Assembly: GCA_000004985.1 (NCBI GenBank) | Contig: GG738864.1 | Length of the DNA stretch: 64,000 nucleotides | From: Naegleria gruberi | Lineage: Eukaryota | Direction: 5' to 3' (one strand) | Shown here: positions 4,951-50,104 of the stretch, piece after piece | Numbering within the stretch: the first letter of the stretch is position 1 | Layout: each line of letters starts with the position of its first letter | Translations under genes and position numbers: made by a program | The notes under the pieces: model-generated | What the model was told of the DNA's origin: nothing | Database searches by the model: none | The model's input: the letters and a program-made list of their open reading frames with translations, nothing else

Positions 4951-5379
4951 ATGAAGAATTTAGCAACACCTATGGTTGAACCATGTTATTTCTTTTTCAA
5001 TGGAGGTTGTTATAGACCTTGCGGTCATTCTCACTGTCCACCTCAACACGAATTGGCAATTTGGAAACAAATTTGGGCTAAAAGAAACTCAAAGAAACAA
5101 AAATACCAAACCGGTGTTTCCAATGAAGAAATGGAATATTTCAAGAAGAAGATGAGAGAGTATTTGGAACAACAAGAAGAAATGAATATGAAAATCAGAA
5201 TGCAATCCAGAGAAATTGAAAGACAACACGATACTATCAATGCCATGAAATGTCAAAGATCATCATTGATTGCTGCTCAATCACCAGTAACTGTTAATAA
5301 TAATTATGTAAATGTTGTGAATGTTCCAGAAAATGGTAATTTCAGAATTAGAACCACTCATACCAGATATTTGCAATAG
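4951..5379 (+). CDS. Small protein with a CCCH-like Cys/His cluster followed by a charged coiled-coil region. The start is uncertain: the ORF is open from 4744 inside repeat B.
   Basis: The 4744..5379 ORF has an in-frame ATG at about 4951 (MKNLATPMVEPCYFFFNGGCYRPCGHSHCPP...). The C-x7-C-x3-C-x3-H spacing is close to, but not a canonical, CCCH finger. A heptad-like charged segment (EYLEQQEEMNMKIRMQSREIERQ) follows. Confidence 0.4.
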   Translation: MKNLATPMVEPCYFFFNGGCYRPCGHSHCPPQHELAIWKQIWAKRNSKKQKYQTGVSNEEMEYFKKKMREYLEQQEEMNMKIRMQSREIERQHDTINAMKCQRSSLIAAQSPVTVNNNYVNVVNVPENGNFRIRTTHTRYLQ

Positions 5380-5546
5380 ATAGACAAGAAATTTCCAAAT
5401 ATGTAAATTGAAAAAAATGTAAAAAAACAAAAAAATGTAAAAACAAACAAAATTAATAAAAATAATTTCAAAAAATTTCTTTATTCAACTTTTTCACAAA
5501 CATTAAAAACTCTTCACACTATTCTCTTCTATTTTTCTATTATTAT

Positions 5547-7082
5547 TTAAAAAGGATTTCTTTGATTGAAAATTTGTGGTTGATAATTCAAATGATATGG
5601 ATAGTATTGAGTTGGATGTTGTCCGTAATAGAGAGTTCTCTGTCTAATTGGAATGTGATGATTATTGGCAGGAATATGTGGCATGTAAAAGACAGGAGCT
5701 GCTTCAGTATTATCAGCTGCATGCAAACTTCTAACTTGTGGTTGACCAGTTTGTTGTTGAGGAGGAGCTCCTTGTTGTTGTTGTTGACCTTGGGCAGGAG
5801 CTTGTTGTGGAGGAGGACCCATTGGTTGACCACCTTGTTGTGGTTGACCACCTTGTTGTTGCTGTTGTTGTTGTTGAGGAACAGGTAATGGTTGTTCTTG
5901 ACCTCCACTAATACAGAAAACTTCACTCTTAGCCAAACATCTAACATTAAAAGGTCCAACAAAGACTGGATTCACACAAATAAAATAGGAACATCCCGGA
6001 GTTGTTTGTAAAGCTCCGCCCCACATGATAATGAATGGAATTTTACCACTTCTTGGTGGAGCTGCAGCTTGTTGATTGACATTAATTAATCTGACATCAT
6101 CTACAACATATTCTCTGTTTTGATCTCTGATTTGGAATACACTGACTGAGAATTGATCGAAATTGAAATTTTCAGAGAATTCCAAGAATTGAGTTGTGTT
6201 GAATTGCCATTGAGCATTAGCAACTGGTTGACTAATGTTGAAACTACCAGATGATAATGAAAACATGCCTGATTTGGCAAAACAGACACCTTCATCAGCT
6301 TGATTAGTTTGGTTATTACTCTTTGGATCAACTCCTGCTTCATTCGAAACTAACTCTGCACACAAGTAATACATGTTACCATATTTGACATCTGGCATTG
6401 TTGGAACCAGATATGATAACTCACCAAATGGCTTACTCTTATCAAGAATATATGAATTCTTTGAGTTTTCTACTTGAGTATCAGCTTGTTGACCACCATT
6501 CTTCCACAAACTAATGGAAATTGAAATTGAACCCTGAGCACCATTTTCAACACCATTTCCAAAGAATTGACTATATACAACTGAGTAGTTTTGGCCAGTG
6601 AACCATTTGGTATATTGTTGTGGATAATCCAATGTCAAGTAAGGTCTTCTTGGAGCTCCACCAGAGTTGACCAAATCTGGATTGTAAGAACAATAGAAAC
6701 CACCAACTGCATAACAATCAGTAGAGTGAGTAATTGAGGTATTAGTAGGATTGAGACATGCATAATAGGAACAGCTTTGAGTTGCATTCACTGGAATGAC
6801 CCAAGGGACGTAACCAGAAGCTCCTGGAATGTTAACTTCACTTGTCATGACTAATTCATCAGCTTGATCTTGTCTTTGTCTGTACAGTGTGAGTGTTGCA
6901 TTTTGTCCACTCAAGACTCCACCACCAATGTAGAGTAAGGGAAGGACACGACCTGTCGGAAGAACTGCGGTGTTATCCGGGATAATTACATACAAGGCAG
7001 TGGTGGTGAGGGAAATTGCCAATATATAGAAAAGTGCAAGTAGCAAAATTGAATAGCTATACTTCATTCGATTGTTGTTCAT
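5547..7082 (-). CDS. Secreted or cell-surface glycoprotein with a C-terminal P/Q/G-rich, prion-like tail.
   Basis: ATG at 7082 (aaaaaaaATG). The N-terminal hydrophobic segment (SILLLALFYILAISLTTTA) looks like a signal peptide or signal anchor. There are many N-x-S/T sequons and Cys pairs. The last roughly 120 aa are Q/P/G repeats, the CAA/CCA repeats at 5740-5880. Confidence 0.6.
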   Translation of the reverse strand: MNNNRMKYSYSILLLALFYILAISLTTTALYVIIPDNTAVLPTGRVLPLLYIGGGVLSGQNATLTLYRQRQDQADELVMTSEVNIPGASGYVPWVIPVNATQSCSYYACLNPTNTSITHSTDCYAVGGFYCSYNPDLVNSGGAPRRPYLTLDYPQQYTKWFTGQNYSVVYSQFFGNGVENGAQGSISISISLWKNGGQQADTQVENSKNSYILDKSKPFGELSYLVPTMPDVKYGNMYYLCAELVSNEAGVDPKSNNQTNQADEGVCFAKSGMFSLSSGSFNISQPVANAQWQFNTTQFLEFSENFNFDQFSVSVFQIRDQNREYVVDDVRLINVNQQAAAPPRSGKIPFIIMWGGALQTTPGCSYFICVNPVFVGPFNVRCLAKSEVFCISGGQEQPLPVPQQQQQQQQGGQPQQGGQPMGPPPQQAPAQGQQQQQGAPPQQQTGQPQVRSLHAADNTEAAPVFYMPHIPANNHHIPIRQRTLYYGQHPTQYYPYHLNYQPQIFNQRNPF

Positions 7083-7439
7083 TTTTTTTTGAGTTGATAA
7101 AGTTTTTGAATTTTATGGAAAATTTATTGTAAAGTGAAAGATGCCTAATATGGTAATTGGAATTTTGAGGAATTGGTAATGGATGGATAAAATGCATGTT
7201 ATTTCCTTCTTCCTTTTTCAATTTATGCAATCTTTACATTCGGATACTTTACAAAATTGTTCAGTCGTTGTAACTTTCTAATATAACTTTCCAATAAATA
7301 ATAATTAACTAATTAATACTAAAATTTTCAAACATTGTTAGTATTGAAAAATGAAAATTATTCATTGTCACTTAAACTTTCTCTGTTCTATCAAGTTCCA
7401 TCGAAATTCTATTAGAAACATTTAGTCAATCAGAAAAAA

Positions 7440-8015
7440 ATGAATGGATTTTATAACTGCATACGAGAAACTTTAAAAGCAGCTTTCTCATTAATAGATC
7501 TATCACAATCTTCATCAAATATCCATCCCGAAGTTGAAATTGGGTAAGTCACTTGTCAATTAATTTAACAAACAAGTGAAAGAACAAACAGAGAGTTTTT
7601 AATGAATCCAATAATTATTTGTTATCGAAAATGGTATCACGAATGTTTAATTGAAGGATCTTGCAATTCCATTCGTATTAGTTTTCGTATAAATGGTGAC
7701 GATGAAATTTCCCGAATTCTTATTCGAAAGTTTATGAGAATAGTCCACAATAGAGCCGAATCTTTAGAAATTCTCAGAAGAAAACCCATCTCTGGGTATG
7801 ATATCACCTTCCTCCTCACTCTTTCCCATTTACAACAAATGAATCATGAGCTATTAATTGATTCCATTTTGAATTTTATAAAAACCTCAACAGAGCTACT
7901 TGTCAATCAACCATTTTCATATGACAGTTTTCCAATATTTGTAAAGATGAGAGGAAGACTCTTGGCAAGGAAAGAGATTTTTGCAGGCACTTGCATTTTG
8001 ACTGACAGGAAATAA
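7440..8015 (+). CDS. Hypothetical two-exon protein of about 175 aa.
   Basis: Predicted join(7440..7543, 7592..8015). ATG at 7440 in an aaaaaaaATG context. GTAAGT donor at 7544. A 48-nt intron ends ...aacag, and exon 2 then reads in frame into the 7602..8015 ORF. No domain recognised. Confidence 0.4.
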
Positions 8016-8490
8016 ATTTTTAAGAATTTACAATTTTGGACAATACAAACATGTTTGATTGGATTACAATGTTTATTGTTAATGGAAAGACACATTAAAA
8101 TTGTTTAAAATATCTACTATCGTTTCATCATGTGATTGATAAGTTTCGTACAAAGTCAGTATCCATTTAGAAACCATTTATAAAACCATTGATGAACTAA
8201 TTTCAATATGCCAAGTCACAACCTCTTATATCATGTTGTTGATTAATTTGTGCGCGAACATGATCGATTAATAAAACTGAAAATCTATCACAACATCCTG
8301 ATGAATAGTGAAAGCAACCAAAATTAGTCCTCTTAACTGGATATAGTCATACCATTGCCATCTATCTAATAAACTTTCGAATTGTTTAGTTGTAACGTTC
8401 TTAGTGCCTATTCCTGTAATTTTGCCGTAAGAAAGATATCATTAGGTATTACAAACAAATCAAAAAAAACCACAAATATCTCTCGATAGA

Positions 8491-9036
8491 ATGATAACAA
8501 CAACAACGAATGAATCGACACTTGAGTGCAGTGTTGCAGAAATGAGCTGTTGTTGTTGGGAATGCACTAGTGAATGTTTTAATATTGCAAAGGGATCATT
8601 TTCGAATAGTTCAATAATAGACGAAACTAAACAATCTGAAACTGTAATTCTTGATGAAAATTATTTGGATAAACTGATTGATCTGGAATTGAGGAATGTT
8701 CCATCTTCATTGGGATTGGTGTGGAGTAAATTATCTTGCACATCAAATCCTAATGAATTTCTCTTCAAAACTAATCCAAACACAGTTTCGTCGTCTTCTC
8801 AAAAGTGTTATCATTTCTCTAGCAGTGAAGCTTCTAGTCATACAATATCTAATACCTGTCAACCAGTTTCGAATATCCATCAAGCAGAAAGCGCAACTAA
8901 ACTGTCAAAGAAAAAGAAACCAAAAAAGGATAACAACAAGCCAAACTATAGAGTTAGGTTTTCGTATAACAAATTCGAAGAAATTGAATTTAGAAAATCA
9001 AATCCTAAAAAAAAGTTTATCATTTTCAAAGAATAA
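8491..9036 (+). CDS. Hypothetical small Cys/Ser-rich protein. Weak call.
   Basis: ORF with ATG at 8491. There is an N-terminal Cys cluster (MSCCCWEC..C) and a basic C-terminus (KKKKPKKDNNKPNYR). No homology recognised. Confidence 0.3.
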   Translation: MITTTTNESTLECSVAEMSCCCWECTSECFNIAKGSFSNSSIIDETKQSETVILDENYLDKLIDLELRNVPSSLGLVWSKLSCTSNPNEFLFKTNPNTVSSSSQKCYHFSSSEASSHTISNTCQPVSNIHQAESATKLSKKKKPKKDNNKPNYRVRFSYNKFEEIEFRKSNPKKKFIIFKE

Positions 9037-9068
9037 AATCCAAAATCGATAATATTCGAATTTAGGAT

Positions 9069-10241
9069 TTAGTTTCTTTTCCTATTCGAAGCCAGAATAA
9101 TTTGTCTTATAACAGTTGGACCATACCTATCGAACCATCTCTTCCTCAACCAGCTCACCACCACAAACGAAACTGAATTAATAGAAAATGGAAGAAAGCA
9201 AGCCCACAGAAAAACATCCAAAATTATTCTCGAATAAATTACATTAGGATTGAAAACAAATCTCCAATAAGTTACAATAATCAAATAAAACATCAAGTGA
9301 TAGCCATTCCAAAATCGAGAACTTGTTGTAAAATTCAATTTCTCATCAATAAATTCTCTAATATTCAAAATGAGAACAAACCACATGAAGAAAATTGGGA
9401 CGAAATGGACGAAAACATATCCGAAAGACCAAGTGGCCAATCCATAATACAAGTAAGCAAAATTTGCCACAATTGTCAAACCCTGAGCTGGAAAGAAAAA
9501 GTAAAACCATGAAATTCTTCTCAACCATCTGAATTTTTTCACAGTCGTTGTAAACACAACAAGTGAACACAAACAATAACTCCAAAAACACATCCACACC
9601 CAATAGCCCTCCATATTCGTGTAGGGAATGTAGATTAGGATCATCATGACAGTTACTAGATAGTGAGCGACCTCAATTATTTTCCTTGTTAAATTCTTGT
9701 CGTCTTCCTTTCGAAAAACTCTATTCGAAATGTCGACAAATCTCTTATCCAATTTAATTAATTTAAGATGGTCTGTATTTTCTTCAGAAATGGCAACATC
9801 TTGATTCTCCTCTTTCAATGCTTGATTCAAATGTTCCTCTAAATTAATAAGAAACAAGTAATTTACCAATGGACGAATCAAAACTAAATGAACCATCACT
9901 GCAAACGAAACAAAAAAGAAACAAGCAATCACTGCATTACTTCCAGATTCATTTGAAAAACTCTCTCTCATACACGTCCATATAAACTCTGGAATTTTAG
10001 CTAAAATTTCCCAAATCGAATAATTTTCCACTAAATAAACTAAATGTTCAAGCAGTGACGAAAGTTCCGATTCATGTTTATAGTTATTTGTAAAAATTTG
10101 CTTTTCCGTATCATCATGATGATGAAAAACCTGATAAATTTGCTCATGTAGAAAATTCGTTACATTCCTCATCAATTGTTCACCATCAAAGAATCCAATA
10201 AAACCCTCTGAGTGGATGATATCCGAATATTCACTTGCCAT
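9069..10241 (-). CDS. Multi-pass integral membrane protein of unknown family.
   Basis: ORF 9069..10259. The likely start is the second ATG at 10241 (aaaaaaaaaATGgca; MASEYSDIIHSEGF...). At least 7 hydrophobic helices are present (e.g. VIACFFFVSFAVMVHLVLI, YLVTVMMILIYIPY, WMCFWSYCLCSLVVF, WFYFFFPAQGLTIVANFAYLYY, FVHFVPIFFMWFVLIL, LMFYLIIVTYW, ILDVFLWACFLPF). Confidence 0.6.
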   Translation of the reverse strand: MASEYSDIIHSEGFIGFFDGEQLMRNVTNFLHEQIYQVFHHHDDTEKQIFTNNYKHESELSSLLEHLVYLVENYSIWEILAKIPEFIWTCMRESFSNESGSNAVIACFFFVSFAVMVHLVLIRPLVNYLFLINLEEHLNQALKEENQDVAISEENTDHLKLIKLDKRFVDISNRVFRKEDDKNLTRKIIEVAHYLVTVMMILIYIPYTNMEGYWVWMCFWSYCLCSLVVFTTTVKKFRWLRRISWFYFFFPAQGLTIVANFAYLYYGLATWSFGYVFVHFVPIFFMWFVLILNIREFIDEKLNFTTSSRFWNGYHLMFYLIIVTYWRFVFNPNVIYSRIILDVFLWACFLPFSINSVSFVVVSWLRKRWFDRYGPTVIRQIILASNRKRN

Positions 10242-10518
10242 TTTTTTTTTGATTGGCATGATGTGAATTGGATTACAATGATGTTTAATTGAAAGTCCTT
10301 AATGACTATCAAAAATATAAATTTAAGTATGTGTTATGATTGGCCAAAAACTACAAAAATCAAGTGCTCCAATTTGGTAATATATTGTGGGATGGAAAAG
10401 GTATTTGTAATGCTCAGCGGATAGTCCTACAATTTAGGAAGAGCAGGACAAGAATATGTTCACAAAGACTTTACAGTTGAGCCTTAATTCAGAGTGATGT
10501 TGTAAAACGACTACCTCT

Positions 10519-12522
10519 TTATTGAGTCAACTTTTGCTTTTTGAGTGGCCCTTCAGTTGTCGTTGTTGAGCTTTCTTGTTCTTGCTTTATAATAGGTTGT
10601 AAAGGTGGCATTGCAAAAGGAGGTGGTAAAGGTTTTCCGAGTGGCATTCCACCCATTGGATTAAGATAGGGATTATTCATTGAAGGTGGCGGGAATGGTG
10701 AATTTTGGAGAAGTTGAGTAGGATTTGGCAAGAGTGGCATTCCACCAGGAATATTAGAGCTGAGTGGTGGAAGTTGTGGAAGAGATGAACCTGGTTGGAA
10801 GTGAACTGCCATATCTTCAAGATTGGTTAATCCTGGTTTTTGTGGTGTTGTAATAAGTCCAGTTTGATTTGGTAAGAGGAGAGAGCTCGTGGAAGGGGTA
10901 AGATTTACAACTGGTGGCTGTGGAATTGTATCACTTGGAGTCAGTGATGGCATTGGCCATGTATTTGGTGTGGCTTGTTTCTCCTTCTTCTTTGGTTCTG
11001 GTTTCTTGGTTGTTGATGATTTAATCTTTTTAAGAAATACATCTGGTTTGGAAAAGACAGCAAATTGGGATGAAATCTTACTCATTACGAGTTTGTAAGA
11101 ATTACTTGCCATATCCTTTCTGAAAATACTAATATAAAAACAAAACTTTCCTCTCCAGCTAAGAGCCTTTTTCTCGGTTGGCCAAAAGAGTTCAACAACC
11201 CAATTTCTTGTTGTAGGATCCTCAGTAAAACTGTATGTAATAACAGGTGTGCATTCAAGTCCAGTCGCAAATTCTTTAAATTCCTCCTCTTGTCCATTAT
11301 TACCTGAAGCGCAGAGGGTGAAATGAGTCGGATCCACACTATTGATAATATCATCGAATGGTGTGAAAGGAATGCTACTATCTAAAAGTCCAGCACTATC
11401 AATCATGGTACCAGGCGAATCTGCCCCATTATTAGAGCTAGCATTGTTGTTGTTTGGAGGGAATAGAGATGGATCAATATTGGCATTGGTTTCTTTGGCT
11501 GATTTTTTCTTCTTTGGTGATAGCTCAATATTTTTTGGTTTGTTTGACTTTTTGTCTGTTGTGGTTGTGTTTTCCTTTGGACTAATAGGTGGAATTGTTG
11601 GGAAGGGTTGTGCCACCCTGACCTTAGTGGGCGAAGCAGAGCTCTCCTGACTGTTGGAGCTTTCACTCTTTTGTTGTTGTAATTGCTTGTAGGATTTGAA
11701 TACTTTTGGCATGGCAACTGGTGGATCTTCACGTTTTGGTGGTGCAACACTGATACTCAAAAGGTTTTCAGCAGCAGTGGCCTCCGAGCATTCTGAATCA
11801 TTGGATTCTTCACTTTCATCGGCTGCTGGTTCTATTGTGAGAATTGGAACTGTTGATGATGATGAAGGAGGAGGTGGCAGCAATGTCCCCTGATTATTAG
11901 TGGCTCCATTAGCAAGAGAGTAAGGTGACATAAATGGACCATTGAGTGGTATTGTTGATGGCAGTGGCGTGATTTTTCGTTTTCTCATCTGTGTTAAATT
12001 CTTCAATAATTTCAATTCCACAAAATATCTACTGTGTGGTGTATTTCCTTTCAATTCAAAGAACTTTTCATTCGGTTCGAGTCGGAACTGTATCATGATG
12101 AGAATTGTTTTGATGATGGGCACAACCAAATGGTGATGATGGTTGAAATAAAAATTTTCGCAACCATGATATGATGATGAAGATTGTCATGTTGGTGGTT
12201 GCAAGTATTATTAGGACACAATTAGAAAAAGGTCAAAATTATATCATCAACTATTAACAACAACACATACTTCATAGTGGTGAGTTCTAAAGAGAATGTC
12301 CTTTGGAGATTCCTCTTGATTTTTGATTTTTCTAGAGGTCACTAGAACATTTACATCGGCATCTCTGTTGGATGTATCGACAAAGACAGCACTAGAATGT
12401 TGTAAATATAACAAATTGGTAAATAAATTGAATGTTTTTGCAACATACCTGTCGATTTGGTTCATCCATTTCAGTTCAATTTTGTGAAAATTCTTCTTGG
12501 AAGAGTTCTTGGATTCATTCAT
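10519..12522 (-). CDS. Hypothetical Pro/Ser-rich, probably nuclear, protein with conserved-looking N- and C-terminal blocks. Two exons predicted.
   Basis: Exon 1 is complement(12271..12522): ATG at 12522, MNESKNSSKKNFHKIELKWMNQIDRYVAK...THHYE, then a GTATGT donor. The exon 2 acceptor is probably at about 12087 (..atacag|TTC), reading ...FRLEPNEKFFELKGNTPHSRYFVELK... and continuing in the 10519..12129 ORF. It contains a lysine-rich NLS-like stretch (KKSNKPKNIELSPKKKKSAKE) and a C-terminal conserved block, GLECTPVITYSF..WVVELFWP. Family not recognised. Confidence 0.45.
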
Positions 12523-13251: not shown

Positions 13252-15238
13252 TTATTTCTTGCAATTAGCTTGTTCAATTACGTGGGTCAAATTGAAGAGG
13301 GCAGAGAACTCAGTGATGAGCAAATTTTCATCAAATTGGAACCAATTGATAACACGATACTTTACGTGGCAACCTTTCTTGTTGAATTGAGAAATGTTCT
13401 TTGAGAAACCAGCATATAAATTATTGACTTCAATCTTACTTGTAATATCCTCTGTGATGTTGACTAAAGTATCAAAGAAGCTTGCAAAGTTGTCAATGAT
13501 TTGTTTCTTACCCTTCACATTATTGGATCCTATTGGAATATTGACCTGTGAATCGATGGCAAACAAACTATCCAATAGTGGAATGTCTCTTTCAACTTGT
13601 CCTTTCTGGAAGAGATGAACTCGCTTGATAATTTCCTCATCTCTTGTGGATTTAACACTTTGTTTGTTGGAGTTATCAATGTGAATCAATTTGGAACTCT
13701 CTTTGGCAATATCATAATTGGAACCAATACTTTGTTTAAAATTGAAAAAGTTGCTTGGATCATACTTTCTCTTGATTTCCAATAATCTATTGTAGAAATC
13801 TCCATAATATTCACTCTTCCAATTTGGTAACTTGTCATCAATATAGTTAACGTAAGCACCATCGAAATTGTACTTGACTTTGGAGTAAAATTCTTCAATC
13901 CATTTAGAATTTGTTGTATGTTCTTCCTTCCTATCAAAAATTGCCTTAAACTCAAAGGTAAATTCAGCATTTCTTCTATAGAATGCAGTGGACTCGAGAG
14001 GAATTTCACGAACTCTGCCACCAACATGAGAAAAGATAACCATAGAATGCTTTGATGGTCTATTCTTGACATATTTGTAAATGGTTGCAACAAAGTCACC
14101 ATTGAAATTTCCCAAATTAACCAGGCCAGACTTGACAATACCATATCTATTCTTAATATCAGTAGTGCCAGATGAGAAGGTTTTCATAAATTCTGGGAAT
14201 GTTTGCTTTTTGTGGAAACTCAAAATTCCATTCATTGAGAGGAATGGTTCAATCAATCTTGTTCCCTCTGCAAAATCTCCATTGTAAACAAAAGTCAAAC
14301 AGAATTGATCTTGTAAAATATTAGGGACTTGGAAGAAGAGACCATAAGCAGTCATCTCCTTTGGAATTGATTGAGTCCAGTGATTATAGAATTGCAATAC
14401 ATTAAGCGATTGTTCAAAAGTCCAACATATTTGTGAGGTCATGATTGGTTTCGATTGGTAAACTCTTGTCTTTATGGCAGTCATTACTCCAAAATTACCA
14501 CCACCTCCACCTCTGAGAGCCCAATATAAATCAGGATATGAATTATTATTCACATGAACATAGTCACCATTTGCCAAGACCACATCAAATTCAATAACTT
14601 GATCACTTCCCAATCCATAGGAACGAGACAACATGGAATAGCCTCCTCCCAAAGTAAATCCTGAAACTCCAACCTATAGAGATGAATTATTAAAAGAAAT
14701 TATTAAGAAAAAGATGCAAGAACAAACATACATGTGGACAAGTTCCAGCAACAGGAACAAATGGAGCCAAGGCTGGATAAATTGTATTCCATTGCAATCC
14801 AGCTTCAATATAAGCAATTCCATTCACGGTATCGATAACTTGTGTCTTGTTGAAATATCTCATATCCAACACAAGTTCAGGATTCAATGAATAACCAACA
14901 GCTGAATGTCCACCACATTTAGCACTAAATTGCACTTGATATTTGGATGCAAATTTGACAGTTTCCTGCACATCACGTACATCCAATGGCAATACTACCA
15001 CACGAGGTCTAATCTGATACGAACCATTATCGATATAAATTGATTCATTATACAAATGTGCAAGTTGTGAATTCGATTCAGTACTACTAATTAATTGACC
15101 TTTCAATTTTGCAGTCAGTTCGTGATAGGGAATATTCGACACATGACTAATGGCCGTGATCGGATCCAACAACAAGATACATTCAACAATAAACAACACA
15201 ACAGCAGAGATAATCAGCTGATATCGGAGTCGAGACAT
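13252..15238 (-). CDS. FAD-linked oxidoreductase of the berberine-bridge-enzyme-like / vanillyl-alcohol-oxidase fold (PCMH-type FAD-binding domain). Secreted.
   Basis: complement(join(13252..14673, 14732..15238)). ATG at 15238 (MSRLRYQLIISAVVLFIV..., a signal peptide). Exon 1 ends ...AGTCPH|GTATGT. A 58-nt phase-0 intron follows. Exon 2 begins VGVSGFTLGGGYSMLSRSYGLGSDQVIEFDVVLANG...ALRGGGGGNFGV. These are typical BBE/FAD_binding_4 motifs. Confidence 0.8.
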
Positions 15239-15552
15239 TTTTTTGTAATTTAATTCAATGTGTGAGAAGTATATATTTACTGTTGTTGATTTCAAAGACA
15301 GGAGTGTAAGATAATAGCACAGTTACATTCATACAAGTCGATTCGCCATCTTTGAACTGGGGAAGGATGTATTTCAAGGATTGCTGCGGAGGAAATAATT
15401 GGTGCGAGGCAAAAAAAATGAATAATACGTTCTCTAGCATAACCATATGGAGTTGTTTAAAAGATTTTAAATGGATGCTAATCGATTTGAAAATTGATGG
15501 TAATCTTTGATCTAGCTCACCTAATACATTTTTTGTAAATAATTTTACAATA

Positions 15553-18456
15553 ATGGTGGGCAATCTTCTCAGTTTTTCTACTTCTAACTGGAAAGTAGAA
15601 AAAATGGCATCACACCAAGCAGAGGAAATTTATTCATGTGCTAATAATCATGATCGGAATGATGTGATGATGAGTAGTAGTAATAGTGTTGTTATTAATG
15701 ATCGTCGCGGAATTTTCAAGTCAATTCCTAAAGAAGTTATTTTACAAATTTTCTGTTACTTGTATAAACCAGAAGAGTTTCAAGGCTTTGCGTTGACTTG
15801 TAAATTATGTTATGAAGTGTACGCTGAGGAAATGTCAATGAGTTTGGATGGAATTAGATTGGATTATTTGAATGGTGTGGATCGAAGTGGAAAACCTAAT
15901 CGATTGATTGAATTATTTTCTATGAATGATGGAATGTCGGCTGACAAGTTGGCCATTGATTATGATAGTTACTTTAGAAAGAAGGGGGAATTTTATGAAC
16001 AGTATTTAGTGGATGAGATTCCAAAGTGCACTAACAAAAAGCTTGATAATGAGGATGACATAGTGGATGAAGAGGAATACCTGGAAGAAATGCAAACATG
16101 TATTCCATACCAGGGCGAATCGTCTAATGATTCTGATGAAGAAGAGAGTGAGGAAAGGAAAAAGGTATTCAAATTTCCATTTGTAAATACTTTAGAAAAA
16201 TTCAAAGAGAGATTGAATGAAATTCTGAAAAACAATGCTATGGCTAAAAAGGTAACGGAATGTCTGAATCATTTTAACAATACTACAAAGACCAATGTTA
16301 GATTCATTATTGCAGGTGGATTTGTTACACATCTGGTATCTAATTGTGGTTGTTGTGATATTGATATTTTCACAATTTCTAATGGGTCTAGTGACGAAAT
16401 TATCGATCATTCACTGAAACAAGTATTAACTCATATTGCTATGGAGCTTCGAAAGGAAAAGGTAGATTATAATATATTAAAGACTAATGGCACATTGAAT
16501 CTATTACCAATTACCAATGGAATTAAATCCAATCTGTGTCACAGATATCCAGATGCTGGTCCTATGGATGAAGATGAACTCCCTTGCCAGTTCGTATTGA
16601 GAAGAGTACAATCAATTGAAGAATTAATGTGCTTCTTTGATATTGATTGTTGTAGATTTTGTTACGATTTTGAGAGTGTGTACACCATATTGGAAGGGCT
16701 TAGATCCATGAAATTTAAACTCAATTTTGTTGCCAGACGTCATATTCACACTGGTCTCTATGTAAATAGAGCCATCAAATATAGTAGAAGAGGATTGGAT
16801 ACACTGTGTGTTGATTTGCACCCATTTGAACACAGACTCCATGCACAAACATTCATGACATGGCTCAGAGAATTTTTAAGCTCACATTTCACGGGAATGG
16901 CTGATGAGGGAGACTATGATGATCCATACTTTAATGACGAATCTTGGAATGGTTTTAACACAATAGCTCCATACATGTATATTGACAAGTATGCTGGAGA
17001 TTCTGACTTTGACGAAGAGCCTTACTATTCTATCGTATTGAAAAGTTTGGATTATTGGCTTGTGAAATGTGTTTTGGATAATGGATTGCGTGATGCAATG
17101 TATTCATTCGAGGCAAATGGTGATTACAGGGATGGAAGATGGACGAATGCATTAAAGGATATCACGATAGTGCATAACGTAGAGAAAAATCCTGTTATCG
17201 AGTCAATCATTGAGCACATTGAAAAATATGATATTCACTACTTTTGTCATACCATTGAAGAGTTACTCATCAAACATCCATCCATGTACATTACTGAAGG
17301 TTATTTGGATAGCCATCTCAAAAGCAAGTATGGATTCGATAGGTGCTACTTGTGCAATCAATACAAGATGGACGGCTTTAAATCCATGTGTCACAAATGT
17401 AAATATTGGAATATTGGAATGGAAAAGATGCATAGAGATCTTTCTGGAAAAGTTGCAATCGTTACAGGAGGAAGATGTAAAATAGGTTATGAAACTAGTT
17501 TGCTATTATTGAGAATGAAAGCAACTGTAGTGGTCACAACAAGATTTGGCTTTAATGCACTCTCGAAATTCCAGAAAGAAAGCGACTATAAGGAATGGAA
17601 AGATAATTTGATTATTTACCCTCTGAATTTGAAACATGGACCATCAGTTGTGGAATTTACAACATTTATCAAATCAAAATTCAAGCATGTGGACTTTTTA
17701 GTGAATAATGCAGCTCAAACAGTAAGAAGGCCAGTACCATATTTCACACCTTTGGTTGCAATTGAAAAAAGCCACTCACAATCTTTATATTTGCCATTAG
17801 GATTGGAAGAGAATAGCAGTGAATCCAACACAACACTAGCAGTCAAGGATCTCACCAAACAATTGGTGAATAATGCTCTCAATAGTACTCTTGAAGCTCT
17901 CACTCCGGAGGATTCTACCTATGAATTTAGAAAGGAATTGGATAAGTTTGGTGAATTAATTGATCATCGAACTAGACATACTTGGAATATGGCTCTAAAT
18001 GAAACAAGCACTGCTGAAATAATTGAATGTCAAATGGTGAATAGTATTGCTCCAACACTTTTAGTTTCCAAATTGACTGATTTGCTGAGACCTCAATTGA
18101 GTGATGAGGAATTACTGTCCATTGATTTTGAAAATAACTCACCATATTCGTATGTGGTTAATGTAACTTCACATGAGGGCTCTTTCAATACTACAGGAAA
18201 AACAGATTTCCACATTCAAACCAATCTTTCTAAGGCATCACTCAACATGTTGACGCATTCAGCCGCTAATCAACTTGCCAAACAAGGAATATTGATGAAT
18301 TCGGTGGATGTTGGTTGGATTTCTTCATCTATTCCAACATTTAAAGATCCACCTTTAAAATGTATTGATGGTGCTTACAGAATTTTACATCCAATCCTCA
18401 CCAATTCCACCAGTTATGGTAAATTATTCAAAGACTATAAAGTTGTTGAGTGGTAG
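15553..18456 (+). CDS. Multi-domain protein: an N-terminal F-box-like motif, a central Pol-beta-type nucleotidyltransferase-like motif, and a C-terminal short-chain dehydrogenase/reductase (SDR) Rossmann domain.
   Basis: Uninterrupted 967-aa ORF with ATGs at 15553 and about 15604. The F-box-like motif is IPKEVILQIFCYLYKPEEF. The NTase-like signature is RFIIAGGFVTHLVSNCGCCDIDIF (hGG-x12-DhDh), with a further acidic motif FFDIDCC. The SDR signatures are LSGKVAIVTGGRCKIGYETSLLL (TGxxxxIG) and LVNNAAQ. The canonical YxxxK Tyr is not obvious (..QTNLSKASL..). Confidence 0.65.
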   Translation: MVGNLLSFSTSNWKVEKMASHQAEEIYSCANNHDRNDVMMSSSNSVVINDRRGIFKSIPKEVILQIFCYLYKPEEFQGFALTCKLCYEVYAEEMSMSLDGIRLDYLNGVDRSGKPNRLIELFSMNDGMSADKLAIDYDSYFRKKGEFYEQYLVDEIPKCTNKKLDNEDDIVDEEEYLEEMQTCIPYQGESSNDSDEEESEERKKVFKFPFVNTLEKFKERLNEILKNNAMAKKVTECLNHFNNTTKTNVRFIIAGGFVTHLVSNCGCCDIDIFTISNGSSDEIIDHSLKQVLTHIAMELRKEKVDYNILKTNGTLNLLPITNGIKSNLCHRYPDAGPMDEDELPCQFVLRRVQSIEELMCFFDIDCCRFCYDFESVYTILEGLRSMKFKLNFVARRHIHTGLYVNRAIKYSRRGLDTLCVDLHPFEHRLHAQTFMTWLREFLSSHFTGMADEGDYDDPYFNDESWNGFNTIAPYMYIDKYAGDSDFDEEPYYSIVLKSLDYWLVKCVLDNGLRDAMYSFEANGDYRDGRWTNALKDITIVHNVEKNPVIESIIEHIEKYDIHYFCHTIEELLIKHPSMYITEGYLDSHLKSKYGFDRCYLCNQYKMDGFKSMCHKCKYWNIGMEKMHRDLSGKVAIVTGGRCKIGYETSLLLLRMKATVVVTTRFGFNALSKFQKESDYKEWKDNLIIYPLNLKHGPSVVEFTTFIKSKFKHVDFLVNNAAQTVRRPVPYFTPLVAIEKSHSQSLYLPLGLEENSSESNTTLAVKDLTKQLVNNALNSTLEALTPEDSTYEFRKELDKFGELIDHRTRHTWNMALNETSTAEIIECQMVNSIAPTLLVSKLTDLLRPQLSDEELLSIDFENNSPYSYVVNVTSHEGSFNTTGKTDFHIQTNLSKASLNMLTHSAANQLAKQGILMNSVDVGWISSSIPTFKDPPLKCIDGAYRILHPILTNSTSYGKLFKDYKVVEW

Positions 18457-40218: not shown

Positions 40219-42237
40219 TTAATTTAACCACCAATCAAAATCTGAGCCATTCGAATTTGCTCCATTGATATTGTTTTGTGAATTAGTTGGCTGTACATTT
40301 GTTTGTTGGAAAGATTGTTGAACTGCATTGGTTGGATAAATTGGTTGAACTTGTTGTACATTTGGTTGTAAAGATGGCTGTCCACTAACTTGTTGGAAGG
40401 TTCCACTCACCCGTTTTGGTTGAGGCAAAGGTCTTGGAATTCTTTCATTCGAAACTGATCGTGGGAAGGTCTTGTTTGGAGAGGTTGGACTGAGTCCATT
40501 ATTTGTGTTCTCATTATTTGTTGAGGTTGGTGTTGGTGTTGCACTGTTATTTGGAGTGGTTGTTGTAGAAATTGTGGTAGCAGATTTATGCCTTGAAGCC
40601 AAAGCTGCAAATCCAGTCAGGGATGTATTCCTTTGTGGAATACTTGGTGTAGCTCCATTGTTTGAGGTGACCACAATTTGAGTGCCATTATTGTTGTTAC
40701 CATTATAACCACTATTATCTCTTGGTATTACCTTTGGTGGAGATTGAGATCGTTGTTGTGGAGAGTCATCAGAGAAAAATCCCCACACTGTATTATCCTG
40801 AATGGATGATGATGATGGAGCATTAAGAATATTTGGTTGTTCCATTTCAGTTGTGAATTGATCAAAATTTTCAGTAGATATAGAATTCTTCATGGCAAGT
40901 AAATGTTTTGGTAGTGGTGGTAATTTTCTAATTGGTTGCTGAGCGTCGTTAGCTGGTTGCTGTTCCATATTAATTGTAGGAGAGGTATTATCCTCAAAGC
41001 TCAGCAAATCATCTACAACCTCAACTTCTGGAATTGTCTGCTCCTTGAAATTTTCTCCAATATGTAATAACATTTTGGCAATCACTGGTTTGTGATCACT
41101 TGTACAAATTGTAATCTCTGATGAATATTGAAGAACTTGAATTCTAGCATTGTACTTGAAAAATATTCTGTCACACCATGAAGGAACTCTCTCTTTTTTG
41201 GAGCTGAAAATATTGGAAATGTCATTAAAATCAATTCCAATAAGATCACTTGGATCAAATGATTTACACTTGTAAGTAGGAATGAAATCCAATGTTCCAG
41301 CTTCATGATATCCTTTCAGAATTTTACCAAGTCGTTTCTCCTTTTGTAATTGGTCACACTTGTAGAGAATGGCCAATCGTCCCTGTGAAATCTTTTTAAT
41401 CACCTCTGCACAACTAAAATCACTATCAATACGGTAATTAAAATCTCCAATAATAATCACAAAATCATCGTTTGTGGTTATTGATACATTCTTATTGGTG
41501 CTGTTGTGAAATTGTAAAGAACTGTTGTGAATTAGAGAAGGATCTTCCACTGCCTTGCTAATAATTGAATTCAAAGCTGCATTTCTTTCCAATAATTTTT
41601 CTGTGTGAGCTGGAAGATGAACATTGATAAAATTGAGTCTAATATATTCCATAAATTGTAATATTATTTGATGATGATGAATTTAATATGAATAATAATC
41701 CGATAATAATTATAATCATTATAATATTATTAATAATATAAATATTATCAATATTAATAAATTAAATAATTATTAAACATACTGTCTATTAAACAATTTA
41801 AATCTAACACTGACAGATCCCTTGTTTCCGAGAGCTCTCGAAAATCCCTCTCTCACCTCACTCACCATACAAGGAGAGCAATATCTAGCCAATTTAAACT
41901 GCACCCACACAAATATACATAATCCAACCAACTGATGGCAAGCAATACAATCATACGATGGAAAAACCTCAGATAGAACTGATCTCCATACAGAAGCAGC
42001 CTCTGTCTGCTCAGTAATCAATGCCTTGGCATTCATCTCAATTTCCTGAAAACCTAACACGATAATATCAGGCACTGAACCATCACTCTCATCAATGAAT
42101 AATTTTGAAAAGTATCGTTGTAGATAGGATCGGTTTGGTTCCTGAGAGGCTACATTCCACGTACAGGCATGAACTAGTAAAGTCTCTGGAATTTCCTTGT
42201 CGAACGATGAAGGATAATTCTTTCCGTTGTGCATCAT
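40219..42237 (-). CDS. Inositol polyphosphate 5-phosphatase (EEP-fold IPPc domain) with an N/S/P/Q-rich C-terminal tail.
   Basis: Exon 1 is 41773..42237 (ATG at 42237; MMHNGK...VLGFQEIEM...WRSVLSEVFP..., the GFQE motif). An AT-rich roughly 120-nt intron lies at 41653-41772. Exon 2 (40219..41652) carries NVHLPAH, IIIGDFNYRID, PSWCDRIFFK and TSDHKPV motifs. The exact splice junction was not determined. Confidence 0.8.
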
Positions 42238-44134: not shown

Positions 44135-44257
44135 TTTATTAAATCAAAACAATGTATTATTCATCAATTCAATCGTTAATTATTACAATTAACTTGGAAC
44201 AACCATAAAACAGAAGAAAAAAATGTCTCAACTTCCTCCACTATTAGAATCTCCTAA

Positions 44258-44848
44258 CCATGTGCAGCAGTGGACTATAAATTTGGCTGCCCTGGTGTTC
44301 ATTCTAATTGGGTCATTCCGCAAATTCTAATGCAAGGTGCCTATCCGAAAGAGTTTGAAGCATTCCAAGACTTTTCCTTGGTCGTGAATGTTTCCGAGCA
44401 TGCATTCTTTGGTAGTTATAGAAACTATATTGAGAGGAATCCCAACACAATTCGATATTTGCATTTGCCCATTGCTGATTATTCCATTGCTCCAGATGAA
44501 GATCTCATTGAATTGGTGAGTAAGGTTGTTCTTTTAATTGAGGAGGGATTAGCGAGCAACAAGAGGGATAATTTTAAAGTTTACATTCACTGCCTTGGAG
44601 GGAAGGGGAGATCCGGAACATTGACTAGTCTTGTATTTGGTTTGCTCTATAATCGACAATTTTCCAAGACGAAAGAGAGAGAACTGATGAAGGGAGAGGA
44701 AGTTCTCCAGTGGATTCAGAAATTCTTTGAAACCAGATCTACTCCATTCTATCCTATTAAGGACTATTCACCAGAAACTGATGAACAATGTGAACAAGTT
44801 AAACGTTTGATGGAATATTTCAATAACAAGTTAAAAGATGGAAATTAA
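44258..44848 (+). CDS. Dual-specificity / atypical protein-tyrosine-phosphatase-like protein (CX5R active site).
   Basis: The ORF is open from 44258 and the track starts it at GTG 44270. The first in-frame ATG is at about 44330 (..ILMQGAYPKEF). The PTP signature is VYIHCLGGKGRSGTLTSLV (HCxxGxxRSG). An upstream ATG at 44223 is out of frame, so the true 5' end is unresolved. Confidence 0.6.
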   Translation, partial: PCAAVDYKFGCPGVHSNWVIPQILMQGAYPKEFEAFQDFSLVVNVSEHAFFGSYRNYIERNPNTIRYLHLPIADYSIAPDEDLIELVSKVVLLIEEGLASNKRDNFKVYIHCLGGKGRSGTLTSLVFGLLYNRQFSKTKERELMKGEEVLQWIQKFFETRSTPFYPIKDYSPETDEQCEQVKRLMEYFNNKLKDGN

Positions 44849-44889
44849 TTATCGTTCTTTCAAAGATACAATAGAGAAATTGATGTTGG

Positions 44890-47430
44890 TTACATGTAAT
44901 ATTTATTCTCTTCAACTTGTAATTGTTCTCGTTCGTCCTTCTCTAATTGTATGGAATATCTCATAAAGGTGTCGCCACAAACTAAACTCTTGACAACACT
45001 CTCCAAACCATCCAACAAATCTATTTGCCCGTAACCAGCCATAATTTTAGTCACATGAATGTCTCTCGTTTGTTGTGAAATATTGAGCGGAGTCGGAGAG
45101 TGAATTAACAAATAGGTCTCAATTATTTCTTCTTGTTTCTTTGCTCTGTCGGATGGTTTCTTCAAACTCTTATAGAACATGACATCCTCTAAGAAATTCA
45201 AATTCTCCTCAGAACATTCCTTCTTACAAAAACTTCTAAATTCTTCTCTCAAGTTTGGATTGAACAAGACTCTTTCAAATTCCAAATTTTGCTTGAAAGT
45301 TTCCATTTGCTTGACTGCCTTCTTCAATTCCTGTTGGTGAATCATATTTCGAGCAACAATGACAAATACTTGACATGTTAATCCTTCTTCCTCAATTGAC
45401 ATGTTAACTTTTGTTACAGAAATAGTGACAGGTGTATCAAATCCAAGTGGTGAAACGAGAATAGATTCCCATCTTGTTTTAGTTTCAGATAATTCCTCCA
45501 ACTTTTTCAACACATCACCATTCGTTTCACTTTCTTTTCCACTTTCGTCTCCATATTTCAAATAGTCCCCTATGAGACTTCTCGATTTTGTGAGAAATCT
45601 ACTCTCAAAAGCATTATTAAAATTAATCAACTTTCCATTATTGGCATGTGCAGTCACAATGAAATCATCAATACTATTCATAATGACTCTTATCTTTTGC
45701 TCAGAGAGTGACATCTTTTCCAATAATCTTTGCATGAGCTCATTGTCCTGAGTGAGCAATTGTTGAGAAGCATCCAAGGTCTGTAACATGTTATTGACAT
45801 CTTTTGAAAGAATTCCCAATTCATCATTTCCAACTGAAGGTACTCTTTGATTACTGTCATTATTGAGTGTAATTTCTCTGACAGCCCTTGTCAATTTTAA
45901 TACTCTTCTCAAAATGATAAATTCTAAAAAGAGAATTACAGAAATGGAAAGAATAATAATCATGGCAGTCATGACACCCCATGTAATAAAGAAAGAGGTA
46001 ATTCCCAACGTATAGACATCTCTAGGAAAGTCAGTTTTCATTACAAATGTATTTGTGCGAGTAATGTCATAAAATTGTTGATAAACTGTCATTCTAGTTT
46101 CTTCAGTTTCGGATTCTCCACATTGTCTATTGAGAACTGATTGAGTATTTCTGAGCTCAGTATAAGTGGCTGATTTTACAAAATCTCCAGTGTTATTTGT
46201 CCAGTTTCTAACATTTGTAGAGTCTATAATAGTCGGTTTCCAATCTCTTGTTTGTTGATTAATGGAATTGGTCAACTCACTGTCTCTCATCTTGTCAATT
46301 GTCGAATAATCTGATTCAGACATTGTTGATTTCAAAAATGAAACCTTATCATTACTATTATCCAAATTATACATTGTCAAACAAAGTTGAGTTCTTTCAG
46401 ACATGTCACTCATCAAATCTCTTGTTTGAAATCTTGCAAAAACAAGAACTCCATAACTTTTCAAATAATCCGTGTCTTGAATTGGCATTGCACTCAATAA
46501 CATGATATTAGGATAATTCTCCTCTTCAGAAATTCCCCACTTTGTATCATTAGGATATTTCATCATTTGTGAAAAACTTTGAATTGGTGAGAAAATTCCA
46601 ACATTTTTCGTCGAGGTCACTAACATGTTCTTTTTCAATTGATTACCGACTGATGTGTCAAGACTTTGTAATTCTATAGGTATGTAATCGAGTTCATATC
46701 CATTGTAACAACCTAAACCTTTCAGAAGAGTTCCATTCAGATAATAAATCAGAGCATAATTGACATGTGTCGCCAATTGATATTGACAGTGAAGATAATA
46801 CTCTAGATATTGAGTGGCTTTCTGCTGAGCATCTATTCCTGTATTATTCACCACCACGACAGTATCTCCAAAACATGCATATTCAAACACTCGTCTTTCA
46901 TATAAGAATTTGTATACAATTATTCTAAACTAAACCTACCCTGTCAAAGTTACCAAATCATCAGACAATGCCCTTGTCGACCTCTTTGCATCCTCCAAAG
47001 CTATCGATCTCTCCACACTCAAAAAGGAAATATTAAAAGCCACCAACAAGGTCGCCAAAACCAAGGCAACCAACAAGAGAAATAACGAAACCAAAACTGT
47101 AATCGTTTTAAATCGTAAACTTTTCAATTTTCTTATCAAACTCTCACATGCAAGTCCATTTCCATGTTGATATTGCTGTAGATGATAAAAAGAAGATGTA
47201 GCTGATTTTTTTAATTGTGGAATGTCCAATCGTCGTGGTGTTGTAATTATTGACTTGTTTTCATGTGATGTGAAAATTTGTTGTTGATAATTGTTGTGTT
47301 GGTTGAGTAGAGAGGTTGAAGAATTGGAAGAGTTGGTGGGTGTGTTGGTCAATTCGAGGTGAGGAAGGTTTTTGAAGAATTTGCTGGTGGGAGAATTTGA
47401 ACTGTTATTGTTTGTTGTTGTGGTGGTCAT
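44890..47430 (-). CDS. Receptor-like RGS protein: a cytoplasmic N/S/T-rich tail, TM1, a roughly 330-aa extracellular sensor-like domain, TM2, HAMP, PAS, and a C-terminal RGS domain. Two exons.
   Basis: complement(join(44890..46894, 46940..47430)). ATG at 47430 (MTTTTTNNNSSNSP...). TM1 is ITVLVSLFLLLVALVLATLLVAF. Exon 1 ends ..DLVTLTG|GTAGGT, with a 45-nt intron. TM2 is LGITSFFITWGVMTAMIIILSISVILFLEFIIL. The HAMP motif is LKLTRAVREITLNNDSNQRVPSVGNDELGILSKDVNNMLQTL. The PAS-like segment is IRVIMNSIDDFIVTAHANNGKLINFNNAFESRFLTKSRSLIGDYL. The RGS segment is FERVLFNPNLREEFRSFCKKECSEENLNFLEDVMFYKSL...SPTPLNISQQTR...GDTFMRYSIQL. Confidence 0.75.
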
Positions 47431-48498: not shown

Positions 48499-49728
48499 TT
48501 AAGTTTCCAATTTTAATTTTGAGTGATCCTTTCTGAAAAACCGTTCCACTGCCGAATTTTGGAATGTATAGTCATATTCACCTTTTCTTAACAGGTTAGA
48601 GCTGAAAATTATCTGTGCTTGTTTTGCAGGAATGGTTGCTAATATAACCTCACTTTTTTCTGGCTCAAAAAGCAAAACTTTTACCAACTTTTTAAAGTAC
48701 TTGTAGGCTCTTTCTTTTTTCTGCAATTCGTCAAGATGAAAATGGATATCTTTTCGAACAAGCTTTTCCAATCCAAGCAAATCAACTTGACCATCAGACA
48801 TCCTTTCAACTTTTTGCATGTAAATAATGTTGTTTCCTGTTATATTGATAATTTCCAAAACAAGAGCTGAATCTTCTATTCCAAATTCAGCCTTTAAGAA
48901 TTCTCTAGCAAATTCGTTAGATGGTGAAAGCTCATTAAGAGTAACTCTACCACCACCCAGTGAAATTGATTGTGCTGCAACTCCATCAGAGGACAGCATG
49001 AGTAATCCAAAAGGCCTTCCACTACAACTGACATCTCGCCAAAAAGCAATAAACTTGTTTGTAATTTCTGGGTTTCTGTTGGCTCCATCAATTACAATGA
49101 TAGGGCATTGCTCTTTCATTATCTCCAAATAGTCCCTTAAAGTATGGAAAATTACAAAGTCTGTTGCCTCTTCTTGAACAGAAATCAGTTTAAGCTTAAT
49201 CCCAATATCTTTCCAAGAGTTTCCACTTTCCAAATTAACATAAATATAGGTTTGGGGATTCAGTTCTTGCAAAACCACTTGCAGCATTGTGGTTTTCCCA
49301 ATACCACTCTCTCCATAAAAATACCACATTAACTGTTTCTGAATATTGCATGATTGCATTGTCTTAATGGCTCTAGAAAATTCTCGTGAAAATATAGGCT
49401 CCTTGATTTTTGGAATGAAGTGGACAGTTTTCTCAGCAAAGAAAGTATTATTTAGCAGAATGAGTTTATCAGAAAACTCTTTGACTTGAACCACTATTTT
49501 GTTATTTTGATATGAATAGCCAATGTACACAGCAATGGAGACCAAGATTGTACCAATTACCATCACAATCACACCCGCATAATTAAAACAAGTGAAAAAT
49601 GTGGAATTCTTCTTTTCACTTTTTGCTTGTTCTTCTGCCAACAACAATTTATTGTTTTCTGGAGATGAATCCTCAAAGTCTGGAAGAACATGTACGGGCT
49701 GAACGTTATTGCTTTCATTGGGGGACAT
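48499..49728 (-). CDS. Membrane-anchored P-loop NTPase (Walker A/B), possibly a STAND/AAA-like ATPase.
   Basis: The ORF is open to 49737 and the ATG is at 49728 (aaaaaaATG; MSPNESNNVQP...). A single TM is near the N-terminus (FFTCFNYAGVIVMVIGTILVSIAVYIGY). Walker A is WYFYGESGIGKTTMLQVV. The Walker B-like motif is CPIIVIDGANR. Confidence 0.6.
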   Translation of the reverse strand: MSPNESNNVQPVHVLPDFEDSSPENNKLLLAEEQAKSEKKNSTFFTCFNYAGVIVMVIGTILVSIAVYIGYSYQNNKIVVQVKEFSDKLILLNNTFFAEKTVHFIPKIKEPIFSREFSRAIKTMQSCNIQKQLMWYFYGESGIGKTTMLQVVLQELNPQTYIYVNLESGNSWKDIGIKLKLISVQEEATDFVIFHTLRDYLEIMKEQCPIIVIDGANRNPEITNKFIAFWRDVSCSGRPFGLLMLSSDGVAAQSISLGGGRVTLNELSPSNEFAREFLKAEFGIEDSALVLEIINITGNNIIYMQKVERMSDGQVDLLGLEKLVRKDIHFHLDELQKKERAYKYFKKLVKVLLFEPEKSEVILATIPAKQAQIIFSSNLLRKGEYDYTFQNSAVERFFRKDHSKLKLET

Positions 49729-50104
49729 TTTTTTCAACAGTATTATAAGGCTCAGTAAAAGAGTTAATTGTCGAACGGAATCGGATTAACATTTTCTTCT
49801 TTCCATTTCTCTTCTGTTCTTTTCAACTTCATATGCAATTTCAGGAGGCATTCCATTTCTCTGATCCTGTAGTTTTTACTGAATTGAGGCTATGGAACCA
49901 AATAAACAAATGCTCATCATTAGAATTAGGACCTTCAATGGTCAAGAGAAGCAACATTTCCATTCATAATGTAAAGAGTTTTGTCTGGTGATGAATGCGT
50001 TATTTTCTCATTAAAAAGTTGGAAACTAAAAGTTAAGTGCAAAGTCAGCCGTGGAGGGGCGATTGGACAAATTGTCAAAACCTCTTTTAGATTGAGTTGA
50101 CCAT

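Follow-up and report, generated by a model that had tools for sequence, protein, structure and literature searches.

Two kinds of described receptor come close to the gene reported here. The first is the 7TM-RGS class, to which AtRGS1 and the Naegleria fowleri proteins 7TM RGS1-4 belong, and in which a seven-transmembrane (7TM) receptor carries a cytoplasmic, canonical RGS domain as output. In N. fowleri, nucleotide exchange is spontaneous for several Gα subunits (they are self-activating), and 7TM-RGS proteins speed their GTP hydrolysis (PMC9283941). In such hosts it is the GTPase-activating protein (GAP) step that is regulated, and the logic proposed is that an outside cue controls Gα deactivation (PMC9283941). 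The N. fowleri genome encodes 79 further RGS proteins, and neither HAMP nor CHASE is mentioned in that study (PMC9283941); more generally, RGS domains fused to at least one transmembrane (TM) segment occur in most lineages (de Mendoza et al. 2014, PMC3971589). The second kind comprises the bacterial and archaeal CHASE4-HAMP-PAS sensors. A survey of the Cache superfamily found CHASE4 with histidine-kinase, chemoreceptor, cyclic di-GMP (c-di-GMP) and a few cyclase outputs (PMC4822843), and the one studied CHASE4, that of Pseudomonas aeruginosa PA2072/IsmP, senses ATP and Fe3+ (PMC12625894, PMC10904736). Here we describe a gene of Naegleria gruberi whose predicted product has the input of the second kind and the output of the first. 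It lies at positions 44890-47430, minus strand, of a 64,000-nucleotide stretch of contig GG738864.1 (GenBank assembly GCA_000004985.1), called the window below, and its 831-residue product is probably a dimeric, two-TM, ligand-regulated GAP receptor for Gα.

The likeness to the 7TM-RGS proteins lies in a membrane receptor with a canonical RGS output on the cytoplasmic side. The receptor parts are non-homologous: here the input is a two-TM module of prokaryotic type, CHASE4-HAMP-PAS, and the proposed relay would run through dimeric coiled-coils, not through a helix rearrangement as in G-protein-coupled receptors (GPCRs) or through endocytosis. By descent, the input module belongs with the bacterial and archaeal sensors, of which PA2072/IsmP is an example. 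Their outputs are HisKA/HATPase, GGDEF, EAL or HD domains, whereas the Naegleria protein has a eukaryotic RGS domain, and it differs from them further by about 90 extra ectodomain residues, eukaryote-specific cysteine pairs, N-glycosylation sequons, an intron and a long low-complexity tail.

Read from the N terminus, the protein consists of a tail, TM1, an ectodomain, TM2, HAMP, PAS and RGS (Table 1), which is the order given in an earlier note made from the letters of the window; the ectodomain, estimated there at about 330 residues, measures 324. Hydropathy analysis (Kyte-Doolittle) found exactly two strongly hydrophobic segments, 324 residues apart. As only two TM segments are present, and not seven, the protein would be a functional analogue, not a member, of the 7TM-RGS class. 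Five relatives were recovered by a word-indexed search: P0001, from an ENA metagenome and covering exon 2 only (99% identity), annotated proteins of Naegleria lovaniensis (54%), N. gruberi (49%) and Willaertia magna (41%), and the metagenomic homologue P0004 (53%). They are collinear with the window protein from TM1 through RGS. TM1 is kept in all five, and the TM2 motif LGITSF.ITW.VMT is invariant among them; the tail is unconserved save for SLRFK, just N-terminal to TM1. From this basic flank and the positive-inside rule, the tail is expected on the cytoplasmic side. The ectodomain may then be extracellular or lumenal, two locations that sequence tools cannot separate. The architecture agrees with the extracellular control that the earlier note had proposed, and would equally suit a lumenal domain.

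At the output end, the RGS domain matched its Pfam family at 52.3 bits, for a cut-off of 23.9, and HAMP was found at 33.9 bits, for a cut-off of 25. The motifs quoted in the earlier note lie inside these matches: VGNDELGILSKDVNNMLQTL (aa 518-537) in HAMP, CSEENLNFLEDV (aa 724) and LNISQQTR (aa 767) in RGS. A phmmer search of the PDB returned 25 distinct sequences at E≤1e-3, all of them RGS proteins, the best solved relatives being RGS5 (4e-9), then RGS16, RGS9, RGS8, RGS18 and RGS4, i.e. R4 and R7 boxes. The R4 proteins RGS4, RGS5 and RGS16 give the best matches to the box (E 4e-9 to 1e-4) and have identical Gα-contact residues; the mammalian R4 proteins are unlike the Naegleria protein in being small, soluble or lipid-anchored, and devoid of a sensor module. 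Residues were mapped onto RGS4 through an ungapped alignment to 1agr_E and an alignment to RGS16. S725, E727, N728, N768, D805 and R809 then correspond to RGS4 S85, E87, N88, N128, D163 and R167, which contact the Gα switch regions in the RGS4-Giα1-AlF4 structure (1AGR); Tesmer et al. are said to have described the roles of these RGS4 residues in 1997. Among 36 family members, the contact residues are kept in 29 to 31 (E727 and N768 in 31 each, R809 in 29). By these alignments the domain is a canonical R4-like box with its Gα-contact residues intact, and GAP activity is predicted. In the annotated N. gruberi orthologue, P0003, the residues RSFCK are missing at the start of the FCKKECSEEN motif (columns ~818-822 of alignment A1), possibly through a gene-model error at a small intron.

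It could be that this box is a module for docking Gα, like the RH domain of GRK or the rgRGS domain of RhoGEF, and that the protein, instead of being a regulated GAP, is a scaffold or effector that brings active Gα to a sensor or takes its input from Gα. Some well-known RGS-homology domains bind Gα and yet are not efficient GAPs, and catalysis by the present domain is a prediction. In Naegleria itself, an RGS-RhoGEF acts as a Gα effector (PMC9283941). However, the closest solved relatives are catalytic R4 and R7 boxes and not RH or rgRGS domains, the switch-stabilising residues are present, N768 included, and no output domain follows the RGS box, the protein ending 21 residues further on. We therefore consider a docking role quite improbable, and keep GAP activity as the predicted output.

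For the ectodomain, the earlier note had anticipated a CHASE, Cache or 4HB family, and CHASE4 is what Pfam gave (PF05228, aa 154-339, 46369-46971). The match is marginal, 28.4 bits for a cut-off of 26.2; the same family was matched by 36 of the 49 top relatives. A sensor profile built from five sequences had no match among PDB sequences, and a 37-sequence profile was required: it matched 9p50, a diguanylate cyclase whose periplasmic domain has been solved, at 1.4e-15. The sensor profile aligns, over its positions 2-328, with the full periplasmic domains (about 235 residues) of prokaryotic CHASE4 proteins. Because this alignment spans the whole domain, the eukaryotic ectodomain is a complete CHASE4 module with about 90 inserted residues. 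An AlphaFold2 (AF2) model of aa 165-462 reached a predicted local distance difference test (pLDDT) score of 90.0 and a predicted template-modelling (pTM) score of 0.87, and its best Foldseek matches were extracellular sensor domains of the double-PDC/dCache type. The domain is placed between the two TM segments, and has the membrane-distal PAS-like subdomain and the reduced membrane-proximal subdomain of CHASE4. It contains five N-X-S/T sequons. In the 37-row alignment of the sensor, C335 and C422 occur in each of the 15 closest rows and in only 3 of the 22 others, and C200 and C226 in the 10 closest rows. These cysteine pairs and sequons fit a periplasmic domain of prokaryotic type that has become adapted to the eukaryotic secretory pathway.

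Below the membrane, NCBIfam aligned the TM2-HAMP region with the sensor kinases BaeS, NarX and WalK and with DgcN/YfiN, far below the cut-offs for full-length members. The glutamate of the HAMP DELG motif, E522, is kept in 34 of the 36 family members. Neither Pfam nor NCBIfam found a HisKA/HATPase_c or MCPsignal output in the 831-residue protein. Between HAMP and RGS, the PAS domain named in the earlier note was supported by structure and by a family profile, not by Pfam. Among the five close homologues, Pfam gave a single weak PAS match (E 0.028), and a profile of these five sequences had only a marginal match, to PpsR. The Pfam family PF00989 was matched in 14 of 49 more distant relatives, by matches that may lie in the region homologous to aa 540-697. 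A profile of 32 sequences was then made from A8, the HAMP-to-RGS interval of 31 members. It matched solved PAS domains, namely PpsR (7.6e-6), 3mjq (1.4e-4) and the PASc domain of CitA (2e-3), and also DcuS and FixL. With A8 as input, AF2 folded aa 540-697 with a pLDDT of 89.4 and a pTM of 0.76, into a long N-terminal helix, two strands, helices, three strands and a C-terminal helix. Foldseek against the PDB gave 110 matches at E≤1e-3 for this model, and all 50 matches listed were PAS, LOV or FixL domains, HTR-like, DosP and PpsR among them; for 3bwl the TM-score, normalised to the target, was 0.80. The modelled fold confirms a PAS domain, with an N-cap helix and a J-alpha-like helix, as is typical where PAS is embedded in a coiled-coil signalling protein.

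The distances between these domains were compared in the same 36 family members. From the DELG glutamate of HAMP to the first conserved asparagine of PAS there are 48 residues in 26 members and 41 in 8, one heptad apart. The distance between the end of the PAS core and the first conserved phenylalanine of RGS is 27 residues in 28 members, whereas the internal loop of PAS may have anything between 61 and 138 residues. In bacterial sensor proteins, helical linkers of quantised length are the hallmark of signalling through coiled-coils. The constrained lengths found here are consistent with such a transmission, and the heptad steps of the HAMP-PAS linker lend indirect support to a parallel, dimeric four-helix HAMP bundle.

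Alternatively, GAP activity may not be gated by a ligand through TM2 and HAMP. CHASE4 would then serve in dimerisation, targeting or lumenal quality control, and control would be exerted by the cytoplasmic PAS, in response to a small molecule or a redox signal, by a phosphorylated tail or by endocytosis. PAS domains are sensors themselves, the variable region of 61-138 residues in PAS could form a lineage-specific pocket, and the protein may reside in an internal membrane rather than at the surface; moreover, endocytosis serves to regulate AtRGS1 (cited in PMC9283941). Such a protein sits less well with an ectodomain as conserved as this one (61% mean column identity over the five close homologues), in which the complete two-subdomain CHASE4 fold is retained. 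In addition, the TM2-HAMP junction and the heptad-spaced HAMP-PAS linker are the best-conserved parts, as transmembrane signalling predicts. Regulation that bypasses the ectodomain thus seems unlikely to us, and gating by a ligand is retained in what follows.

In the mechanism that we propose, the receptor would be a homodimer, as bacterial sensor kinases are. A ligand bound to the CHASE4 ectodomain would shift TM2; the HAMP four-helix bundle would convert this shift, and the signal would be relayed along the coiled-coil and the PAS dimer. The relay would change the orientation or the accessibility of the two RGS domains, so that GAP activity toward membrane-bound Gα-GTP would be raised or lowered. 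An extracellular signal would in this manner control the GAP step of Gα without a 7TM receptor. As several Gα subunits in Naegleria load GTP spontaneously, hydrolysis is the regulated step, and a ligand-gated GAP could therefore be the receptor of the pathway. Extracellular control is made more plausible by the conserved Gα contacts, the length-constrained linkers and the self-activating Gα of Naegleria (PMC9283941). That these proteins are true ligand-gated GAP receptors, in which a prokaryote-derived CHASE4-TM-HAMP-PAS dimer mechanically controls RGS, in parallel to 7TM-RGS in Heterolobosea, is quite possible, and we put it forward tentatively.

Several observations weigh against this proposal. 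GAP activity, dimerisation, ligand binding, surface location and transcription are all predictions, drawn from sequence and models. To our knowledge, gating of a protein-binding output domain by HAMP or PAS is established in no system, and we know of no precedent with RGS. The sensor model starts at aa 165, and lacks the first 27 residues of helix 1. The CHASE4 domain of PA2072 is only a distant relative of the sensor profile (E about 0.5), and no ligand can be proposed from it. Over the whole 831-residue protein, Pfam gave no PAS family at E<1. Finally, the PAS-to-RGS linker of the window protein has 23 residues, 4 fewer than the 27 found in 28 of the 36 relatives.

An exhaustive search with a profile from TM1 to PAS returned 5732 proteins at E≤1e-3, of which 46 at E≤1e-30. 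Of 151 proteins (150 listed relatives and P0002), 43 had a C-terminal RGS domain by a local RGS hidden Markov model. On the 49 top relatives, Pfam matched CHASE4 in 36, RGS in 31, HAMP in 30, PAS in 14 and Guanylate_cyc in 5, whereas the next 64 relatives were typical prokaryotic CHASE4-HAMP-PAS proteins with HisKA/HATPase, GGDEF, EAL or HD outputs, for instance in the archaeon Methanolobus. The named eukaryotic members all come from N. gruberi, N. lovaniensis and W. magna, with at least eight paralogues in N. gruberi, so that the fusion which the earlier note suggested looking for in related genomes was indeed found there, along with metagenomic relatives. When the word-indexed search was repeated with an alignment of PAS-RGS, it yielded no more than 4 proteins and is uninformative on taxonomic spread. 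The earlier note knew of no characterised RGS protein of this architecture. In full-text searches we likewise found no paper on RGS proteins whose input is HAMP or CHASE4, a mention in a catalogue of domain architectures being still possible; the family itself, however, was already in the databases, where its members are labelled only 'predicted protein', 'RGS domain-containing protein' or 'HAMP domain-containing protein'. The receptor architecture is public solely as automatically annotated sequences, and the window gene belongs to a family of considerable size in Heterolobosea.

Two metagenomic contigs from the same JGI sample, both eukaryotic, bear on the use of this input. The first, L003, is 62 kb long and carries two adjacent, divergent PAS-RGS paralogues (7387-11749 and 14569-16552); a few kb from this pair there is a PAS-HisKA-HATPase kinase, with a stand-alone response regulator next after it. 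The second, L004, carries two divergent genes for CHASE4-HAMP-adenylyl/guanylyl cyclases (1731-5970), beside ORC5 (ORC5_C). Taken with the RGS proteins, these cyclases indicate that the CHASE4-HAMP input has been joined to at least two outputs in these eukaryotes. The L004 cyclases, and the PAS-containing adenylyl cyclases of Naegleria, resemble the window protein in having a CHASE4-TM-HAMP input in the same kind of organism. They differ from it by a class III cyclase output, which is dimeric and for which control by HAMP is well established, and by having no RGS; in the cyclases P0033 and P0039, there is also no PAS between HAMP and the output. The comparison shows a CHASE4-TM-HAMP input shuffled among outputs within the lineage.

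A bacterial-looking input next to an RGS box could also point to an artefact: the gene model might be mis-joined, the gene a pseudogene, the assembly chimeric, or the RGS gene of a eukaryote flanked by contaminating bacterial DNA. The nearest non-eukaryotic relatives of the input module are indeed prokaryotic CHASE4-HAMP-PAS kinases and cyclases, and transcription of the locus is a prediction. Yet CHASE4 (from aa 165), TM2, HAMP, PAS and RGS are encoded in one 666-codon open reading frame (ORF), and this fusion is present in three named species as well as on numerous independent contigs from metagenomes. The locus also has a spliceosomal intron, a eukaryotic base composition (about 34-35% G+C across the window) and eukaryotic neighbours. 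Exon 2 differs from its allele on the metagenomic contig L001, which carries P0001 and is 98.6% identical in DNA to window positions 44189-47181, by 17 synonymous and 4 non-synonymous codons. The resulting ratio of non-synonymous to synonymous polymorphism (pN/pS) of 0.059 points to strong purifying selection on the gene. An artefact is thereby effectively refuted. The L001 allele also has the PAS-RGS helix that is shorter by 4 residues (45295-45340, aa ~682-697).

The earlier note had called an 831-residue protein with a 45-nt intron (46895-46939), and had named as a threat to its reading that exon 1, with the tail and TM1, might belong to a different gene. Both strands were read and the same gene model was obtained, with the ATG at 47430; the spliced coding sequence translates into 831 residues and a stop. 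Unspliced read-through runs into stops within the intron ('...LTG*V*FR'), and removal of the intron restores the frame. The resulting junction, '...LTG|RVFEYA', is a gapless match to '...LNS|RVFEYA' in the annotated proteins of N. lovaniensis and N. gruberi. From the frame and the collinearity of the homologues, the intron is inferred to be spliced. In the homologue P0004, on contig L002, tail, TM1 and sensor are in a single ORF, and no intron is found at the position of the window's intron. P0004 has instead a short GTAAGT...AAAG intron inside the RGS domain (L002 2954-3018), and intron positions are therefore not conserved in this receptor family. As P0004 carries the tail, TM1 and the sensor in one ORF, exon 1 does belong to the gene. 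Taken jointly with the gated-GAP mechanism, the reading that this locus is a functional, spliced heterolobosean gene for a type-II-oriented, two-pass membrane receptor is the one we think probable.

Table 1. Features of the two-pass RGS receptor gene, in window coordinates and in residues of the predicted protein.
Feature	Position in window	Strand	Residues	Remarks
Exon 1	47430-46940	-		491 nt
Intron	46939-46895	-		45 nt, spliceosomal, GTAGGT...AAAG, phase 2, splits codon 164
Exon 2	46894-44890	-		One uninterrupted 666-codon ORF
N-terminal low-complexity tail, predicted cytoplasmic	47110..47430	-	1-107	Ends in basic RKLKSLRFK
TM1	47020..47109	-	~108-137	Signal-anchor; Kyte-Doolittle 19-residue window peak 3.16
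CHASE4-type tandem PAS-like (Cache-clan) sensor	46003..47019	-	138-461	Intron inside span
TM2	45910..46002	-	~462-492	By hydropathy; followed by basic stretch LRRVLKLTRAVR
HAMP (PF00672)	45772..45915	-	491-538	Directly follows TM2 (ends ~aa 492)
Signalling helix, PAS and C-terminal J-alpha-like helix	45295..45768	-	540-697	PAS core about aa 575-680
RGS (PF00615)	44956..45279	-	703-810	Profile positions 2-108 of 117
Stop codon	44890-44892	-		Ends 21-residue tail after RGS

Within the window, tblastn found no second copy or paralogue of the gene. The neighbouring ORFs are eukaryotic, and encode DNA ligase I, an inositol-phosphatase-like protein, a GRF zinc finger, a dual-specificity phosphatase, and AAA and ankyrin proteins. 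A 192-residue ORF at 44270-44848 (plus strand) has the CX5R phosphatase motif HCLGGKGRSG and matches Pfam PTP-SAK and DSPc; it is convergent with the RGS gene, its end lying 41 nt from the stop codon of that gene. On the other side, an ORF of about 412 residues with an AAA_22 P-loop (48499-49737, minus strand) adjoins the RGS gene. Contig L004 also has a 413-residue AAA_22 ORF (199-1440), beside its CHASE4-HAMP-cyclase, and synteny between the two was considered; they have only the common Walker A motif, and the resemblance is probably a coincidence. Further away, the ORFs at 41773-42237 and 40219-41652 (minus strand) match the first and second halves of one Exo_endo_phos2 profile (inositol 5-phosphatase-like), and are probably a single gene (40219-42237) interrupted by a short intron.

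If the proposal is correct, these proteins would form a second class of receptor-GAP, structurally unrelated to 7TM-RGS, and would strengthen the view that deactivation is the regulated step for self-activating Gα. A whole prokaryotic transmembrane input would have been wired to a purely eukaryotic node, a natural experiment in modular signalling and a possible template for engineered receptors. It would also be the first case of HAMP and coiled-coil signalling onto a protein-protein-interaction output that acts on a eukaryotic G protein. CHASE4, held to be almost exclusively prokaryotic and tied to c-di-GMP enzymes, would be documented in eukaryotes, with adaptations to the secretory pathway. 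For Naegleria, to which the lethal pathogen N. fowleri belongs, these receptors would open a route to the environmental cues that are sensed, by proteins without a human counterpart, and the paralogues of N. gruberi, at least eight in number, would be a chemosensory repertoire of the amoeba.

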